Shown: positions 8,417 through 14,648 of the stretch, one piece after another
Numbering within the stretch: position 1 is the stretch's first letter
Layout: every line of letters starts with the position of its first letter
From: a virus
Lineage: Duplodnaviria > Heunggongvirae > Uroviricota > Caudoviricetes
Length of the DNA stretch: 14,648 nt
Virus record (IMG/VR): IMGVR_UViG_2548876863_000002
Direction: 5' to 3' (one strand)
Notes under the pieces: model-generated
Database searches by the model: none
Seen by the model: only the letters and a program-made list of their open reading frames with translations
Told to the model about the DNA's origin: nothing
Position numbers and translations under genes: made by a program

Positions 8417-9916
8417 TTAAGTTCTCCGTGCGATGGGCCTGATTGGGGCTGGTATCTTTTTCTCTTTTGGTTTTTTGATGTCGCGCATCATTTTTGCGAA
8501 GCGGCGCATCATGTATGCATAGCGAACGGCTGAGAGAACGTCGTCGTTAAGCTTGACGATCTTCCCGTTTTCATCACGGTGATAGAGGCGGAACTCCTCA
8601 AAGAATGGCTCACAGGTGTTGAATACTTTGAAGCGACCATCAAGCATCATGTCGCGCAATTCAGTGATGCCAGGCTCAACAGCATTACCGCCATCAGGCC
8701 ATGTCGCATGCTCCTGCAACATCATAAATCCAGCGTCTGCATACTGCCCTTTGAGCTGCTCACCGCCACCCTTCTCGTGCTGGTTTCCGTCATGAGGCCA
8801 TGCGGTTGGCACTTTATGCGCCCATGATTTAACTGCTCCCCACGCCTGAACGGCTGTCTTTTCTTTCGCCTTCCACACGCGTGAAACGTAGATTGTGTCT
8901 GCGTCCTTATCCCACCAAAGCTGAACCTGCGCCTGCGGGTGATCCCATCCGAAATCCATACCGCCAATTACGTAGAAGTGATCAGGACACTCGAACGGCT
9001 GACACTTAATCGTCTCTTCCGGTATCTGGAAGATTCGACCACTACCCATCGTAGGAATACCGCGAGCACGCGCCTCTCTCTCATGCTCAGGATAGGATGC
9101 GATGATTTGCTCTTTCTGCTCGTCGGTATAGTGCTCAGCGTCATAGATGGTCATGTTGACCACTTTCTGCGACTTGCTGGGATTCTTCAGGAACTTGGTA
9201 ACAACGTCAGACATCCCCATCAGCGGGGTAAACGTCAGGATTGAGAATTGCCCGTATTTGTTGGTACGGGTAAGCCCTTCGCCATAAATGCTGTATGGTG
9301 GTTCTTCGTCAAACCACACTCCGTGGATTGTGTCACCCTGCCAGCGAGCACGACCTTGCGAGTATGGCTTGAAGTAGCAGATTGAAATGCCATCTTCAAC
9401 GCCATCAGCCGTGTGATGCTTAACCAGAAGGTGATCAACAAGGTTCGGAAAGAAAGGAGACTTCTTCCAGCTAATGATGTCCTCTTTCGGTATTGAACCG
9501 TAGCCCGGTTCATCATTCTCTTCAATACGACCGCACAGGATGCGTTGAGTCGTTTTGGTTACCGTCTCGTTTGTCTCGCCACCAATCCAGAAGACAACAG
9601 GCTCATAGAAACGCTTACCTTTCCACTCCCCACCATATTTACCATCAGCAGGATATCCTTTTGTGCCCGGATAACGCCCGGTAAGGTGAAATGCGACTTC
9701 AGCAGCACCAGTAAATGACTTACCAAGCTGGTTACCAGCCATAAAACAGCGCTCTGGATAGTCATGCCCGGCGTCGATGAACTCACGCTGTTTGCTGTAT
9801 GGCGTAAATTCATATAGCAGGTGTGTGTTCCGGTAGTTCTCTTCTTCTTCGAGTAGCTCGAGCAATTCGATTTGCTCTTCGTCGCTCAAGTTATCAAGAA
9901 TCGCGTCCAGTTCCAC
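8417..9916 (-). CDS. Terminase large subunit, P22 gp2 family (499 aa)
   Basis: 499 aa, matching the P22 TerL length. The start codon at 9916-9914 is GTG, the first start after the upstream stop, with AAGGAG 10 nt upstream; it overlaps the small-terminase 3' end by 23 nt. Confidence 0.88.
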
Positions 9917-10382
9917 GGTTGAATAGCTCCTTGATACGAGAGCGCCGCTTATCGCGATCTCCCTTATCAGGTGTCACGTCTTCAACTTGCGACTGCTCTT
10001 TGATGCCCAAATCACGGGCGATGATGTTAGCGTTGAGAAGGTCAGCGGCTGCGCCAGAGAATTTCTGGTCGTAGATGATGTCTTCCGCTCGCGATGTGAC
10101 GTCAGAAAAACCTTCCATTGACCGGAAGGTTCCCCACGTTTGCCTGGTGATATCAAGGAAGGTACACAATCCTGAAATAGTCATGGCTCGCATCTTAGGG
10201 ACATTAGCCTTAATTATTTCTCCCTGATATGAAAATACCTTACCCTCCCATAGTGGGTTATCATCAGCCCACTCGAAGTATTCACAACAAGCAGCCCACA
10301 GCGCCTCAGGCGATTCGAATTTAGGATTTCGCCCATGACTACTGCGGGCCTCCCAAAATCGGTTGCCCTTTGGTGCTGCCAT
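9894..10382 (-). CDS. Terminase small subunit, P22 gp3 family (162 aa)
   Basis: The track ORF starts [11 protein letters not shown] at 10388. The second ATG (10382-10380) gives 162 aa, the P22 gp3 length, and has AAGTGAG 6 nt upstream. Confidence 0.85.
10094..10115 (-). other. Candidate pac (packaging initiation) site inside the small-terminase gene
   Basis: Minus-strand GAAGGTTTTTCTGACGTCACAT lies about 265-286 nt into the gene, the position of the P22 pac site, and matches the P22 pac sequence I recall (GAAGACTTATCTGAGGTCGTTA) at 14 of 22 positions. Part of that similarity may be coding conservation. Confidence 0.4.
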
Positions 10383-10417
10383 ATTCATCTCACTTAGTTG
10401 TCATTTCAGGTTGAGCA

Positions 10418-10660
10418 TCATGCTCCGGTGGTGAACAGGTCTAACGCTTCCTTCGATTTACGCACCGCTTCGATAGTGCGGGTCGTGATATCTGAATTAG
10501 CGCCGCCTGACTGGAAGTGAATTTTGAATAGCTCAAGCTTCAGCTCGTCAGTGCCAATGAACTGAAATGCTTCCTCTGCGGCTTCGTTCTGGTTCATGAC
10601 CAGTTTGTAAATCTCTAACTGGAATTTCTGTTCTTCAGTCATAGGAATAATCTCTGCCAT
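10418..10660 (-). CDS. Hypothetical protein (80 aa) immediately upstream of the small-terminase gene
   Basis: ATG at 10660-10658 with GGAG 6 nt upstream. P22 has an 80-codon ORF at this position. Acidic, helical-looking product; function unknown. Confidence 0.55.
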   Translation of the reverse strand: MAEIIPMTEEQKFQLEIYKLVMNQNEAAEEAFQFIGTDELKLELFKIHFQSGGANSDITTRTIEAVRKSKEALDLFTTGA

Positions 10661-10681
10661 TGTTGGCTCCGTTTATCCGTT

Positions 10682-10707
10682 AAAAGGGATATCAGTTAAG
10701 ATATCCC
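10682..10707 (-). terminator. Hairpin / weak intrinsic terminator between the 126-aa and 80-aa genes
   Basis: Perfect inverted repeat GGGATATC-(6 nt)-GATATCCC; on the minus-strand RNA it is followed by UUUUAACGG (only four U). Confidence 0.4.
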
Positions 10708-10763
10708 GTGTAGGGTATAAGCCATTATCAAAGCCACTCTGTAGGGAATGGCTTTTGTAATAA

Positions 10764-11144
10764 CTACTGTTCGCTTAGCTTCTGCTTCAGCAAGTAACCT
10801 TCGAGCATCCAGATTTTGTTTACAGCATTTTGCCGGGCAATCTTCCGACCAATTTCTGCATCAAAGTTTTCCGGGCTTGCACAGGCACTCTCTCCGGTGA
10901 CGGTGAAGCCATTCTTCAGCACCAGTACGCAGAAAGTGAGCAACTTCAATGGTGATAAATCACGATCGCCTTCTTCTGGTTTTTCCCTGCCACAATATTC
11001 GTTGCTGGAAATGGCACCATTTCGTCCATCATAAGCAGTAAAGTAATGCTCGCTTTTAATCACGTCTTCGATGTGCTGCGGAGTGATTCTCGGAGCGGTT
11101 TTGCCTTTCTCAACGATTTCTTTTTCGATTTGCTGGTCGTTCAT
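10764..11144 (-). CDS. Hypothetical phage protein (126 aa)
   Basis: ATG at 11144-11142 with a weak AGGG-type ribosome-binding site. Product MNDQQIEKEIVEKGKTAPRITPQHIEDVIKSEHYFTAYDG...NGFTVTGESACASPENFDAEIGRKIARQNAVNKIWMLEGYLLKQ. Not recognised with confidence. Confidence 0.55.
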   Translation of the reverse strand: MNDQQIEKEIVEKGKTAPRITPQHIEDVIKSEHYFTAYDGRNGAISSNEYCGREKPEEGDRDLSPLKLLTFCVLVLKNGFTVTGESACASPENFDAEIGRKIARQNAVNKIWMLEGYLLKQKLSEQ

Positions 11145-11434
11145 AATTATGACCCTGTGGAGTGGTTGCTTGATTAGGATGTCTTTCCATCAGTCCGCCA
11201 CCACAAAGAATCTTTTTTTTGCCATAAGGCAGGAGGTTCATCTTTCAGTGGCTGCCAGTGTTATTTCCCCACTTACTGGCTTGGGTTGTTTCGCTGTACT
11301 GCCGTAACTGGTTACCCAGAATAAATTCCGGTTTCATTATCAAGCCCACCCGTAGATGGGCTTTGTAATGGATAGCTGTTGCTCAGTTCTCGTAATGCTT
11401 TGATTTTTCCGATAACGCAGTTTTGCGTTTGCCA

Positions 11435-11956
11435 TCAGCAAGCGATATCGAGAGTCAACTGCAGTTGCTCGCGCCAGTACTCGACATTTGCTTCAATAAC
11501 CGGCTTATCCCATCGCCAGCGAGCCATCTCTCTTGCCCCATTGCTGGCTTTTGATTTCCGGTCATCGCGAATGCGACATGCTTGCTCATATTTCTGCTGC
11601 TCAGTCAGTTCACCGCGAAGCAGACTATCAATGTGCAGGTCGCACCACACAGCAAAACGAGCATCACACCAACGGGCAAATGCAACTGAAAGTTTTGGAT
11701 GTAGCCACGTACCACCACCCCTGTCCTTTCGTGCCTTGCTGGTTTTTACATACCTCGATTGTGAGGGATGTAAAATTTGAGATTCTTTCCCGGTCAACGC
11801 TTCGTCTAAAGCACGAACGTATTCAAGCGTTTCTGCCAAACGCATCCAGTTATCAATGCGTTTCCCAAATCTCTCAGCAACACCTGTGACGTTGATCCAA
11901 CCATCAGTGTTGAAACTGACAATTTCACCTTTGTAATTAAGTGGCACGATATTCAT
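11435..11956 (-). CDS. KilA-N domain protein (173 aa)
   Basis: ATG at 11956-11954. Carries the KilA-N-type signature: ...FGKRIDNWMRLAETLEYVRAL...GGGTWLHPKLSVAFARWCDARFAVWCD. Confidence 0.65.
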   Translation of the reverse strand: MNIVPLNYKGEIVSFNTDGWINVTGVAERFGKRIDNWMRLAETLEYVRALDEALTGKESQILHPSQSRYVKTSKARKDRGGGTWLHPKLSVAFARWCDARFAVWCDLHIDSLLRGELTEQQKYEQACRIRDDRKSKASNGAREMARWRWDKPVIEANVEYWREQLQLTLDIAC

Positions 11957-12071
11957 AACGTTTACCTACCATTTGAAATGAACCTTTGCCGCACAGGAAA
12001 CCAGCCCACCGAGGCTCGCCAGCACTAACTGGTATCCTCAAAGGCCCATTCCAAAGGGTCAGGTTCGGTGT

Positions 12072-12098
12072 AAAAAACATGCGTTGCGGTACGCATTT
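12072..12098 (-). terminator. Intrinsic terminator (second of a tandem pair downstream of Rz/Rz1)
   Basis: Minus-strand RNA AUGCGU-ACCGCA-ACGCAU followed by GUUUUUUA. The same hairpin is followed by UUUAUU on the plus strand, so it may act in both directions. Confidence 0.55.
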
Positions 12099-12103
12099 AT
12101 TGC

Positions 12104-12126
12104 AAAAAAGCCCCGCATCGCGAGGC
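12104..12126 (-). terminator. Intrinsic terminator (first of a tandem pair downstream of Rz/Rz1)
   Basis: Minus-strand RNA GCCUCGC-GAU-GCGGGGC (7 bp including one G-U pair) followed by UUUUUU, about 30 nt after the Rz stop. Confidence 0.6.
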
Positions 12127-12158
12127 TCATTAAATGGACTTTGTGATTTGCAAAAAAA

Positions 12159-12596
12159 TTACTTCAGGCATTGCGTCCTGATGTACTCCTGCAGGTAGTT
12201 AACCTGCGCGGTTATCCTGTCGATTCCACTTCGGAGACGGTAATAATTGAGTTCAGCATCTGCTGTAAGTCTTGGGCTTTCTCCATCGCCCATGCTGCTG
12301 GCTCCGGTCGTTGACTTTGCACAGGTGGCGGCGACTTGCAGGCGCTTACGACCAGCAGAAACATCAGCACGGAGACTTTCGATAGTCGCGTTAGCATCAG
12401 CAAGCTCCTTTGTATATCTGGCATCGAGTTCTGCTACGTCACGTTGACGCTTCTGCATGTCAGCAATGATGTACGTGGCCTTATCGCGCTGTTCTTTATA
12501 GGCAATGGCTTTATCACGGTAATGATTAACAGCCCATGACAGGCAGACGATGATGCAGATAACCAGAGCGGAGATAATCGCGGTTACTCTGCTCAT
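12159..12596 (-). CDS. Rz: Rz i-spanin (inner-membrane spanin subunit)
   Basis: From the ATG at 12596-12594 the product begins [28 protein letters not shown], essentially the lambda Rz N-terminus. The start overlaps the endolysin stop as ATGA. The track ORF starts 4 codons earlier (MGAAM). Confidence 0.85.
12212..12397 (-). CDS. Rz1: Rz1 o-spanin (outer-membrane lipoprotein), nested in Rz in the +1 frame
   Basis: ATG at 12397-12395 with AAGGAG 7 nt upstream. Signal peptide [20 protein letters not shown] with lipobox Cys, then a Pro-rich mature region ([16 protein letters not shown]). 61 aa, entirely inside Rz. Confidence 0.78.
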
Positions 12597-13097
12597 TGCT
12601 GCCCCCATAAACAGACTTCACGCTCAATCTCACGGCGAGTCATCAGCCCTTTCCATTGCTTACCGCCAGCGTATGTCCAGCGACGTAGCTGGTCACATGC
12701 GCCTTTGATATCACCCTGGTTTATTTTGCGAAGAAGCGTCGATGTTCTGAAATTGCCAGCCCCCCACGTTGTAGACGAACGAGTAAAGAGCGCCGCGCGT
12801 TGTTTCCGGTATATCGACTTTGATGTACGGGTTAATTTGTCTGGCGACCGTGGCAAGGTCTTTATTCAGGAGAGCTTTGCATTCTGCTTCGGTATACGTT
12901 TTACCGAGCATGATGTCTTTTCCTGTATGCCCGTAACATACAGTCCATACACCAACTATGTCTTTGTAAGGATTATGTCTCACACCTTCCAGACCATCGT
13001 TACCACTTGGGCCAGTGATTAACACAGATGCTATAGCAATAGCCCCGCCACTTATCGCCGCTATTACGCTATTTCGTAGTGCCGGTGACATTGCCAT
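12593..13097 (-). pseudogene. SAR endolysin (phage 21 R-type lysozyme) interrupted by a +1 frameshift
   Basis: The N-terminal ORF (12711-13097) has a Gly/Ala-rich signal-anchor-release helix ([16 protein letters not shown]) and the E-x8-D-x5-T catalytic motif ([17 protein letters not shown]). The C-terminal part continues in another frame (12593-12856: ...[55 protein letters not shown]). The frames meet at a C6 run on the plus strand (12760-12765); one fewer G would give a continuous ~167-aa protein reading ...[11 protein letters not shown].... Confidence 0.7.
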
Positions 13098-13272
13098 TCA
13101 ATCTGTCCTCGCGCTCTTTGCGCTTGTAGTACCAGTTGATGCCAAATGTGCCGACAGTACAAAGAATACCAATGATGACAGCCCAGTCATTCAGGGAGAG
13201 AATGCCACCCATCGCAGTCAGTCCTCCGAAGCTGTAACTGAACCATTCTCTGATTTTGTCCATACGGTACAT
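13069..13272 (-). CDS. Class II holin (pinholin-like, two transmembrane segments) with dual-start motif
   Basis: 67 aa beginning M-Y-R-M (ATG TAC CGT ATG at 13272-13261), i.e. two in-frame starts separated by a basic residue, as in lambda S. Gly-rich first segment ([17 protein letters not shown]), more hydrophobic second segment, charged C-terminus. Its 3' end overlaps the endolysin start. Confidence 0.7.
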
Positions 13273-13278
13273 GCTCTA

Positions 13279-13294
13279 CCCCTTCATTGAGGGG
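13279..13294 (-). promoter_or_regulatory. Stem-loop over the holin ribosome-binding site (analogue of the lambda S upstream hairpin)
   Basis: Minus-strand CCCCU-CAAUGA-AGGGG ends 6 nt before the first holin ATG and contains the GAAGGGG ribosome-binding sequence. Lambda has CCCCUUAUUGGGGG at the same place. Confidence 0.45.
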
Positions 13295-13562
13295 ATTTGC
13301 TCTATTTAATTAGGAATAAGGTCGATTACTGATAGAACAAATCCAGGCTACTGTGTTTAGTAATCAGATTTGTTCGTGACCGATATGCACGGGCAAAACG
13401 GCATCAGGTTGTTAGCGCAACCTCTTGCCACCCGCTTTCACGAAGCCAGCCATTGAGCTGGTTTTCTTTTATGCAAAGCACACCGCACCGTAGCCACAGC
13501 GGATAAGGTGAGGGTTTTGTCTGTCTGGTTTTTGGTGGAATGCGCTTTCAGAAATGTCGTGC

Positions 13563-13586
13563 AATAAAAAGGCCGCCTTAGCGACC
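13563..13586 (-). terminator. Intrinsic terminator of the cargo ORF
   Basis: Minus-strand RNA GGUCGC-UAAG-GCGGCC followed by UUUUUAUU; the ORF's UAA stop codon sits in the loop. Confidence 0.55.
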
Positions 13587-13853
13587 TTTATTTGAATTTG
13601 GATTCCCTCTCCATTTCCATTCATCTTTATGAGCTGCAACGCCAAGTTCGGTAAGAGAGTAGTATTGCATTAAGCTATGATATCCGCCGTTATTATCACG
13701 GTCGAAAAAGCCAACAGCAAGATATCCATGACGGACCAATGAGTCAACCATGAGAATCTCATCATCCTGTACGTCAGAATCAGCAATTCTCTCCTGCTTA
13801 AATTGAAGAATTCGATTGAGAAAATGCAGTTCTCTTCCAGAGATTTTTTCCAT
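13578..13853 (-). CDS. Hypothetical small protein, cargo (moron-type) gene between tR' and the holin (91 aa; 118 aa from the alternative start at 13934)
   Basis: The frame is open from the ATG at 13934, which has no ribosome-binding site. The internal ATG at 13853-13851 has GAGG 5 nt upstream. Visibly AT-richer than the flanking late genes and followed by its own terminator. No homolog recognised. Confidence 0.45.
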   Translation of the reverse strand: MEKISGRELHFLNRILQFKQERIADSDVQDDEILMVDSLVRHGYLAVGFFDRDNNGGYHSLMQYYSLTELGVAAHKDEWKWRGNPNSNKGR

Positions 13854-14163
13854 AACAACCTCGTCTAGTTGCTCGTCTATGTTCGCTATGGCAGGCAGTG
13901 ACGATACTGCTTTTCGACTGGCCGGTCTAGCCATAGCTGAAGGGGACCAGTTACGTTTATCAGGCGTCTTTCGACCGATTTCCTGAGGTAGCAGGTTAGG
14001 ATGTGGTGGCTACTACGTGAGACTTAGCTCAGCGCCCTACAGGAAGGTTCTTTGGCTGAGTACCCATTACAAACCCTGTTTTAACCACATGGGGAAGCCA
14101 ACTCTCCCAAATACTTAGTGTCGAGCCTAAGCAGGGCATGAAAGAAGGCTTTCCGTTGTGCTT

Positions 14164-14303: not shown

Positions 14304-14648
14304 CTAACGTGTGACTGCATTCAAAATGTTGTCTGCGATTGACTCTTCCTTGTGGCATTGAACCACCAGAGCGTCATACAGCGGCTTAACAGTGCGTGAC
14401 CAGGTGGGTTGAGTAAGATTTGGGATTAGCATCGTTACAGCGCGATATGCGGCGCTTGCTGGCATTCTTGAATAGCCGACACCTTTGCATCTTCCGCATT
14501 CTTTCTCAACAACTCTCCCCCACTGCTCTGTTTTTGCTATATCAACTGCCCGACCTGTACCGTGGCAATCTCTGCATCTTGCGCCCGGCGTCGCGGCACT
14601 ACGGCAATAATCCGCATAAGCGAATGTTGCGAGCACTTGCAGTACCTT
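14304..14648 (-). CDS. Q: Late antiterminator Q, lambda type (C-terminal part; 5' end beyond the window)
   Basis: The frame is open to the window edge; the track's M at 14636 is a GTG inside the gene. Sequence ...ATFAYADYCRSAATPGARCRDCHGTGRAVD...CGRCKGVGYSRMPASAAYRAVTMLIPNLTQPTWSRTVKPLYDALVVQCHKEESIADNILNAVTR matches the lambda Q zinc-binding C-terminus from memory. Stop TAG at 14306-14304, about 45 nt before pR'. Confidence 0.8.
   Translation of the reverse strand, partial: KVLQVLATFAYADYCRSAATPGARCRDCHGTGRAVDIAKTEQWGRVVEKECGRCKGVGYSRMPASAAYRAVTMLIPNLTQPTWSRTVKPLYDALVVQCHKEESIADNILNAVTR

Follow-up and report, generated by a model that had tools for sequence, protein, structure and literature searches.

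A two-site accessory cassette slot with a predicted cyclic-dinucleotide sponge gene in the late operon of a P22-like phage

The stretch of 14,648 nucleotides (nt) analysed here, from the IMG/VR virus record IMGVR_UViG_2548876863_000002 and called the window below, covers late genes, read on the minus strand, of an E. coli phage or prophage that is P22-like (Lederbergvirus). Three small genes stand there between the lysis cassette and the small terminase, encoding a 173-amino-acid (aa) KilA-N protein, a 126-aa protein and an 80-aa DUF2560 protein. We consider it likely that this block is an accessory cassette slot with two sites, which ends the lysis module within the late operon and is followed by the conserved DUF2560 gene. 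Site 2 carries a protein of the Acb4 family, a predicted sponge, and site 1 a predicted DNA-binding protein of the 'Bro network'. By using locus alignment, profile searches and structure prediction, we could confirm the observation made in an initial annotation, which had been drawn from the sequence alone, and partly support its interpretation. The three minus-strand genes are where it had placed them, with Pfam matches at E = 8e-22, 3e-35 and 2e-42 for the 173-, 126- and 80-aa proteins, and the many homologs of each protein support real genes (NCBIfam gave no match for any of the three). What it had described as a single accessory block is two cassette sites and one conserved gene.

Borders, cargo and flanking elements of the slot

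We fetched 80 IMG/VR loci with DUF2560 as the anchor and aligned positions 9300-13300 of the window to them (n = 79 after one locus, L006, identical across the block, was set aside). Coverage falls sharply at about 10760, 11170, 11310-11370 and 11950 (Table 1). The expectation that the 80-aa gene holds a conserved position while the KilA-N and 126-aa genes are variable cargo is borne out: the DUF2560 gene with its leader aligns in 74-79 of the 79 loci, the 126-aa gene in 19 and the KilA-N gene in 3. In loci where site 2 is empty, the non-coding element that otherwise precedes the cassette is joined directly to a degenerate copy of the hairpin that otherwise follows it (hairpin B). The Acb4 cassette, about 414 nt long (11177-10764), is accordingly an insertion the size of one gene. 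Anchoring on the Rz and small terminase genes of the window lost 53 of the 80 loci because these two genes are themselves mosaic. Slot contents were determined instead by clustering open reading frames (ORFs) in the 64 loci with enough flank, and representatives were scanned against Pfam.

Between Rz and DUF2560, these 64 loci carry gp65-like small ORFs (32 loci), Rha-type proteins (28), Acb4-like proteins (16), other KilA-N proteins (5), the KilA-N type of the window (4 by ORF clustering), Tad2-like proteins of PF11195 (4) and an Acb2/Tad1-hairpin protein of PF24729 (1). Further cargo includes DUF551, T5orf172/MUG113, a trypsin-like protease and several uncharacterised proteins. Thus three known families of signal sponges or inhibitors, Acb4-like, Tad2-like and Acb2/Tad1, occur in the same interval. 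The initial guess at anti-defence functions stands for the 126-aa gene, through its family (PF13876), and for the slot, through the Tad2-like and Acb2/Tad1-like cargo found elsewhere; evidence of superinfection exclusion or toxicity was not found for the block genes in this computational analysis. Other cargo, comprising Tad2-like, Acb2/Tad1-hairpin, T5orf172/MUG113 and trypsin-like protease genes and recurrent uncharacterised ORFs of 86 and 61 aa, can be seen at loci L029 (5176-5697), L020 (5423-5707), L062 (5268-5753), L063 (5018-5866), L019 (5016-5291) and L009 (5674-5862). The recurrent 86-aa and 61-aa ORFs are candidate new counter-defence genes. The combination found in the window is rare. 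Among 5,426 complete E. coli genomes, only 5 have the KilA-N, Acb4-like and DUF2560 genes together, as does 1 of the 64 loci; counted one by one, the KilA-N, Acb4-like (megablast-level relatives) and DUF2560 genes are found in 155, 524 and 899 of these genomes, respectively.

Phages Sf6 and P22 have the same interval between Rz and terminase, with shared leaders and the same DUF2560 gene (Sf6 gp67, P22 ORF80). Sf6 carries gp65 at site 1 instead of the KilA-N gene and has an extra gene, gp68. In P22, site 1 is taken by Rha (ORF201) and site 2 by ORF25 and the reverse-strand pid moron (about 830 bp), followed by ORF80. It had been stated in the initial annotation that P22 has different content where the window has its KilA-N and 126-aa genes, and this is correct. 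The conserved position of the 80-aa gene extends to its sequence, since P22 ORF80 is identical at 78 of 80 residues (98%).

The tandem terminators predicted upstream of the block are both present. T1 has a 9-bp G+C-rich stem followed by U6 in the fold of the minus-strand RNA, and the annotation of phage Emek gives a rho-independent terminator at the homologous position; T2 follows in tandem. Over the region we counted 7 terminator-like sites, against 2.8 +/- 1.7 in shuffled sequences. The cassettes resemble morons in being gene-sized, sharply bordered insertions with hairpins downstream, yet a consensus scan found no sigma-70-like promoter before either of them. That scan, which may miss weak or non-sigma-70 promoters, returned 2 sites in 2.5 kb where chance alone would give 3.2, and neither lies upstream of a cassette. 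The genes lie between the Q-dependent lysis genes and the terminase and show no promoter signals, and therefore antiterminated read-through is the simplest model for their expression. Under this model the cassette genes, having no promoters of their own, would presumably be read by Q-antiterminated polymerase through T1, T2 and T3, and these terminators would keep them silent without Q.

Each site has its own 5' leader and 3' hairpin. The leader of cassette 1 is identical over 79/79 nt to the first 79 nt of P22F, the leader of P22 rha; it is present in 14-17 of the 79 loci, and the next gene in the ORF table is always of Rha or KilA-N type. The segment 12060-11957, which includes this leader, folds at -42.2 kcal/mol (z = -3.6). 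The leader of cassette 2 is the non-coding element between the sites, which is kept in 68 of 79 loci whatever the cargo and is 95% identical (123/130 nt) to nt 59-186 of P22G; its fold is unexceptional (z = -1.3). Both P22F and P22G are small RNAs detected in P22-infected Salmonella (PMC13397905). At the 3' side, the hairpin A motif lies 4-67 nt (230 nt in one locus) past the stop codon of cassette 1, be the gene gp65-like, Rha, KilA-N, Tad2-like or uncharacterised, and hairpin B follows any cassette-2 gene, whether Acb4-like, DUF551, the 61-aa ORF or the trypsin-like protease. The two hairpins share their arms (TTACAAAGCC...GGCTTGATAAT; repeat families D6 and D7), and a hairpin with these arms follows cassette stop codons in 49 of the 64 loci (L006-L085). 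Where one hairpin had been noted between the 126-aa and 80-aa genes there are two, hairpin B and a terminator-like hairpin 5' of DUF2560 which the consensus scan missed because its U run is only 4 bases long. The latter lies within the segment kept in 74-79 of the 79 loci, and the whole segment between the two genes folds at -39.7 kcal/mol (z = -6.8 against shuffles).

We infer from these arrangements that the P22F-like and P22G-like leaders and the recurring 3' hairpin probably provide the homology for cassette exchange among lambdoid phages. The hairpin positions are reminiscent of integron attC sites, with no integrase present. A second possibility, which we regard as tentative and which can coexist with a linker role, is that the P22F-like and P22G-like segments and hairpins A and B function as RNAs or RNA signals and do not just serve passively as recombination linkers; they might act as small RNAs, in RNA processing or stability, or in controlling translation of the cassette genes. 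The P22F and P22G counterparts have 3' ends that stop 6 and 16 nt short of the start codon that follows, the elements are conserved (68/79 and 74/79 loci) while the coding cargo varies, and the P22F-like leader and the hairpin segments fold strongly (z from -3.6 to -6.8). These points are offset by the P22G-like element, which folds no better than shuffles, and by the P22F and P22G RNAs themselves, which could be degradation intermediates of a long late transcript. No Rfam family matched positions 10300-12250 on either strand at E <= 1, and the copies are nearly identical, too similar for covariation to be informative.

A further step would be to see the interval between Rz and DUF2560 as an organised two-site cassette system, in which fixed RNA leaders and 3' hairpins drive the exchange of counter-defence genes as well as their expression, and not as a random mosaic joint. 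We put this forward as a speculation with the odds against it. If true, Rha and KilA-N::ORF11CD3 proteins, the 86-aa and 61-aa proteins and other uncharacterised cargo would be new players in nucleotide-signalling immunity or regulation, as would the always-present acidic DUF2560 protein, and the hairpins would be cassette-boundary signals, loosely like integron attC sites without an integrase.

The Acb4-family protein at site 2

The 126-aa protein, which had been left as unrecognised, matches PF13876 (Phage_gp49_66) at 120.8 bits (cutoff 27; E = 3.4e-35), with residues 20-123 covering the entire 82-position model. SPO1 Acb4, the founding member, scores 35.5 bits on the same model. A single residue separates the protein from Sf6 gp66, to which, with one other protein, PF13876 owes its name. 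PF13876 was recognised as the Acb4 family in 2024-25, and Table S3 of the Acb4 preprint lists Sf6 gp66 among 1,331 Acb4 homologs (bioRxiv 10.1101/2024.12.30.630793).

Structure prediction points to the same family. A phmmer search reached PDB entry 9E4W (SPO1 Acb4) at E = 0.007 over residues 69-111. The AlphaFold2 (AF2) model of the 126-aa protein, built from 32 homologs, has a predicted local distance difference test score (pLDDT) of 88.8, and the top 13 Foldseek matches in the PDB are all chains of 9E4W (E = 3e-4 to 2e-3, probability 1.0; template modelling (TM) score 0.61-0.69 on target length). The first match outside 9E4W is about two orders of magnitude worse (E = 0.07), leaving 9E4W as the only significant PDB match. 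The SPO1 Acb4 protomer combines helices at the N-terminus, an antiparallel sheet of three strands and a long helical region at the C-terminus, and this fold recurs in the AF2 model, where residues 29-36, 69-76 and 81-87 are the strands and residues 96-125 form the long C-terminal helix. Residues 66-120, the core, hardly vary across the clade of the 126-aa protein, and homologs about 72% identical to it (P0100, P0107) are fused to Tad2 or Sequestin sponge domains.

We conclude that the 126-aa protein belongs to the Acb4 family and that a cyclic-dinucleotide sponge is its most likely mechanism. Its ligand, its oligomeric state and an effect against the cyclic-oligonucleotide-based antiphage signalling system (CBASS) we infer from relatives. 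SPO1 Acb4 is described as a tetrameric sponge that takes up 3'3'-cyclic GMP-AMP (3'3'-cGAMP; about 157 nM) as well as related signals of CBASS. Of eight other homologs tested there, every one bound 3'3'-cGAMP, and those from phages of Gram-negative hosts also bound 3'3'-cyclic di-AMP (3'3'-cAA) (bioRxiv 10.1101/2024.12.30.630793). By analogy, the protein would assemble into a homo-oligomer, a tetramer in the solved relative, and would sequester CBASS-type cyclic dinucleotides, most likely 3'3'-cGAMP and adenine-containing ones such as 3'3'-c-di-AMP. With the alarm dinucleotides sequestered, we propose, the CBASS effector would stay inactive during virion production.

The closest guide to the ligand may be phage N4. 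Its PF13876 homolog (EPNV4_gp48, the 'N4 Gp49' in the name of the Pfam family) and the 126-aa protein are 45% identical over residues 19-126 (E = 4e-29) and share an NGFT(V/I)TG(E/K)SAC core, and each is encoded by a phage of E. coli. For N4 Acb4, c-di-AMP binding at 111 nM and triggering of the guard systems PanDA and Panoptes have been reported (bioRxiv 10.64898/2026.08.10.743972); the text of that preprint gives no locus tag, and the N4 gene was matched by sequence only. In RefSeq, the N4 homolog (L088, 5633-6486) is gp48, of 123 aa, not gp49, and stands directly upstream of a DUF2829/Tad2-like gene. The same pairing of an Acb4-like with a Tad2-like gene occurs in the P22-like phage Huey and in some IMG/VR loci. 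In the GenBank record of Huey (L003), the Acb4 and Tad2 homologs (382-762 and 997-1497) are both labelled 'anti-CRISPR protein', which looks like a generic or mistaken anti-defence label. N4 differs in setting, being a lytic schitovirus with the locus between replication genes and the virion RNA polymerase, whereas the phage of the window is temperate and P22-like and has the gene in its late operon.

Several points weigh against the sponge reading. SPO1 Acb4 and the 126-aa protein share Pfam family, fold and phage origin at about 24-29% identity. Of ten mapped ligand contacts, three are identical (F48 -> F80, F62 -> F94, I66 -> I98, in the aromatic and hydrophobic adenine pocket) and N63 to D and V56 to C are conservative changes, but the contacts that read guanine or hold phosphate are replaced (K36 -> L68, E49 -> T81, Y57 -> A89, T70 -> I102, K81 -> M113). 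With only 3/10 contacts identical, the ligand could therefore differ. SPO1 Acb4 has 96 aa and lacks the 18-aa N-terminal extension, which contributes a helix, and the insertion of about 26 aa found in the 126-aa protein. The model covers a monomer only and gives moderate TM-scores. In our search, neither this protein nor Sf6 gp66 turned up in any assay of binding, oligomerisation or CBASS, and the available text and supplements of the Acb4 paper do not name the eight homologs tested. Finally, a place in the late operon is unusual for a counter-defence gene, and the timing of expression is deduced from gene order.

These differences could mean that the protein keeps the Acb4 fold for another purpose, acting on 2'3'-cAA, cUA, a trinucleotide, a Thoeris signal or RNA instead of countering CBASS. 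Seven of the ten SPO1 pocket residues differ, the protein has an N-terminal extension and an internal insertion, and in the preprint it is pointed out that extensions may bring additional functions and that the fold is similar to double-stranded RNA-binding domains (bioRxiv 10.1101/2024.12.30.630793). We nevertheless find this improbable. The core is nearly invariant and close to that of the N4 homolog, whose namesake protein is reported to bind c-di-AMP; all eight of the diverse Acb4 homologs tested bound 3'3'-cGAMP; and the fusion partners and neighbours of Acb4-like genes are other nucleotide sponges. The pocket pattern resembles that of the N4 homolog, which shares T81 at the position of the guanine-reading E49 of SPO1, and would fit another base preference rather than lost binding. 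A cyclic-dinucleotide sponge with a possibly shifted ligand range remains our preferred reading.

The KilA-N protein at site 1

The KilA-N domain (PF04383) of the 173-aa protein spans residues 7-114 and scores 77.5 bits (cutoff 23.8). The C-terminal part of about 70 aa does lie beyond the KilA-N signature, as had been noted, but it weakly matches a named domain, ORF11CD3 (PF10549; residues 122-169, 16-19.5 bits). Precomputed Pfam matches place PF10549 in most full-length homologs, and PHROG 518 ('Rha-like') matches residues 118-170 at E = 4e-9. P22 ORF201 is composed of Phage_pRha and ORF11CD3 (E = 1e-27), and hhalign pairs residues 125-169 of the 173-aa protein with residues 151-196 of ORF201 (E = 1.7e-5, 78% probability). 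The relation is visible at profile level only, pairwise BLAST between the two proteins showing no similarity, and a PDB sequence search with the 173-aa protein returned nothing. An IMG/VR protein of 177 aa (L028) has an N-terminal half that is KilA-N-like by eye and a clear Rha-type C-terminus.

By its profile matches, the 173-aa protein appears to have the architecture of P22 Rha with the N-terminal DNA-binding domain swapped, and it would be the positional and architectural counterpart of ORF201. Through the ORF11CD3 domain common to Rha, the KilA-N gene would not be content unrelated to that of P22. Two points argue the other way: the ORF11CD3 match stays below the Pfam cutoff of 25 bits, and the hhalign probability is only 78%. 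The same domain content makes the protein a predicted member of the 'Bro network' of domain-shuffled phage DNA-binding proteins (PMC10111431), a group of KilA-N and related shuffled regulators traced to Iyer et al. 2002 as cited in PMC8585504 and PMC10111431. Proteins of the Bro-network/phage D3 ORF11 type likewise join a KilA-N N-terminus to a C-terminal part of ORF11CD3 type; the annotation of the Emek ortholog notes a similarity to D3 Orf11, and homologs are abundant in Pseudomonas and enterobacterial prophages. We found no assigned function for the KilA-N + ORF11CD3 architecture in the literature.

One function to weigh is that of BstA, the KilA-N-like abortive-infection protein of the P22-like prophage BTP1 (PMC8585504). 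If the 173-aa protein were a prophage defence or exclusion factor of this kind, it would guard the lysogen from other phages, and PADLOC gives a weak match over the KilA-N domain to the candidate PDC-S22 (E = 1.2e-5). This seems to us a rather remote reading. PDC-S22 was the only PADLOC match at E <= 0.1, with no BstA family among the results. BstA is a two-domain protein of about 300 aa with a C-terminal domain of about 150 aa, against 173 aa ending in ORF11CD3 here. Two terminators precede the gene, which belongs to the late operon and has no promoter-like site, an atypical setting for genes expressed in lysogens, and the gene stands in for Rha behind an identical leader. We retain the assignment of a Bro-network DNA-binding protein that would take the place of P22 Rha.

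The DUF2560 gene, the genomic setting and the meaning of the slot

The 80-aa protein matches PF10834 at 143.8 bits (cutoff 25). It is acidic (14 D/E against 8 K/R by manual count), and its model has four helices (pLDDT 76). The family is restricted to enterobacterial P22-like phages, with 88 clusters among 5.8 billion proteins and 165 phage records. A profile search of 1.84 billion representatives gave 75 matches, mostly short stand-alone proteins, and one distant homolog again follows a Rha gene. Long multi-stretch profile matches were repeat proteins and taken as spurious, and a GDSL-lipase 'fusion' was a single case with part of the domain only. In the lambdoid siphoviruses mEp234 and mEp235, just the first 25-28 codons of DUF2560 are present, which looks like the remnant of a recombination joint inside the gene. 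Where the favoured reading of the block is concerned, DUF2560 offers no functional lead and no informative fold or profile relative: Foldseek with the model found nothing better than E = 2.8 in the PDB and uncharacterised proteins only in BFVD, and a PDB sequence search returned noise only. The variable genes followed by a conserved small gene recall acr-aca loci. An Aca-like repressor role for DUF2560 was rejected, the protein being acidic with no helix-turn-helix match, and on present evidence the analogy is positional only. We can only call DUF2560 a conserved accessory gene.

That all three genes are conserved assembly or packaging helpers ahead of the terminase, suggested by the position of DUF2560 immediately 5' of the small terminase in almost all sampled loci, is highly implausible and largely refuted for the KilA-N and Acb4-like genes by their presence in 3 and 19 of the 79 loci, while DUF2560 adjoins three unrelated small-terminase types (gp3, Sf6-type PF20901 and Terminase_2), often with other genes intervening, and P22 is reported to tolerate deletion of the orf25-orf80 region (PMC11016777; whether orf80 itself was removed is ambiguous). 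Between DUF2560 and the small terminase there is a second, smaller variable site, with ORF59/gp68-type genes in 14 of the 64 loci and uncharacterised ORFs of 134, 129 and 162 aa elsewhere; it is empty in the window.

Table 1. Features of the slot and its surroundings, with alignment coverage by segment
Feature	Position	Strand	Details
Q antiterminator	14304-14636	-	First in late gene order
Rz i-spanin	12159-12608	-	Upstream boundary of block; PF03245, E 3e-36
Terminator T1	12102-12128	-	Just 3' of Rz stop; GAGCCUCGC-GAU-GCGGGGCUC + U6
Terminator T2	12072-12096	-	Tandem with T1; AUGCGU-ACCGCA-ACGCAU + GU6; terminator scan and RNA fold
Cassette-1 5' leader	11972-12050	-	Long stem-loop; ends 15 nt before KilA-N start codon
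Cassette 1 gene	11435-11956	-	173-aa KilA-N::ORF11CD3, 'Bro network', predicted DNA-binding; Pfam, hhalign
Hairpin A	11336-11368	-	TTACAAAGCCCATCTACGGGTGGGCTTGATAAT; 3' border of cassette 1; fold of 11440-11306, z = -4.3
Conserved non-coding element	11178-11305	-	Between cassette sites; common 5' leader of cassette 2; 68/79 loci
Cassette 2 gene	10764-11144	-	126-aa Acb4-family (PF13876), predicted cyclic-dinucleotide sponge; Pfam, phmmer, AF2/Foldseek
Hairpin B	10724-10760	-	TTACAAAAGCCATTCCCTACAGAGTGGCTTTGATAAT; 3' border of cassette 2; recurs after cassette-2 genes
Terminator-like hairpin 5' of DUF2560	10682-10707	-	GGGAUAUC-UUAACU-GAUAUCCC then UUUU; RNA fold
Conserved DUF2560 gene	10418-10660	-	80 aa, P22 ORF80/Sf6 gp67 type; PF10834
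Small terminase, P22 gp3 type	9894-10388	-	Downstream boundary of block; PF16677 GP3_package, E 4e-30
Aligned segment: Rz	12160-12590		41-50/79 loci
Aligned segment: cassette-1 leader	11950-12100		14-17/79 loci
Aligned segment: KilA-N	11370-11950		3/79 loci
Aligned segment: non-coding element	11170-11310		68/79 loci
Aligned segment: Acb4-like gene	10760-11170		19/79 loci
Aligned segment: DUF2560 + leader	10420-10760		74-79/79 loci

In the window, the Q gene is followed by a pinholin and a signal-arrest-release (SAR) endolysin, Rz/Rz1 (an Rz1-like sequence lies in a 70-aa ORF embedded in Rz, 12212-12424), the three genes of the block and the gp3-type small terminase, and past it by large terminase, portal, scaffold, coat and further downstream genes. 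Among phages, IME10 gives the best overall match (96.5% identity over 80% of the window). In E. coli OkiPb01684 (L086), a prophage next to tRNA-Arg/intS carries a copy of the block that is 100% identical; this prophage is dead, riddled with IS3, IS1 and IS21 insertions in its portal, coat, Rz and tailspike genes, and the block survives in it. The SAR endolysin of the window (12593-13097, minus strand) is split into ORFs of 128 and 87 aa by one extra G in a G-run near 12765 (GTGGGGGGCTGG), and is intact at 167 aa in L006, an otherwise identical locus; the split reflects either a sequencing error or an inactivated lysis gene. A 118-aa ORF without a Pfam match (13578-13934, minus strand) stands between the Q antiterminator and the pinholin, a position at which lambdoid phages often carry cargo genes.

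All three protein families of the block are already catalogued, the mechanism is transferred from relatives, and nothing established is overturned. What is new is the defined two-site architecture, the conserved RNA-like flanks and the sponge-rich cargo in P22-like phages. A hotspot for anti-signalling genes with exchangeable cargo has been described in N4-like phages (bioRxiv 10.64898/2026.06.04.730250). There, as here, a fixed interval takes up diverse counter-defence genes including Acb4 and Tad2; lineage and flanks differ, the flanks being Rz and DUF2560/terminase in the present case. We found no description of the P22-like slot as an anti-defence hotspot in a limited literature search, in which absence is not proof. 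We conclude that the slot is an anti-signalling hotspot in the late operon.

With this finding, a lineage of temperate phages that forms prophages and is common in E. coli and Salmonella gains a predicted cyclic-dinucleotide sponge. The precise borders turn the uncharacterised genes at both sites into a short, testable list of counter-defence candidates, and the conserved flanks can be used as primers or anchors for mining further cargo. The patchy presence of Acb4 among these phages could relate to guard systems such as PanDA and Panoptes, which punish phages that carry sponges.

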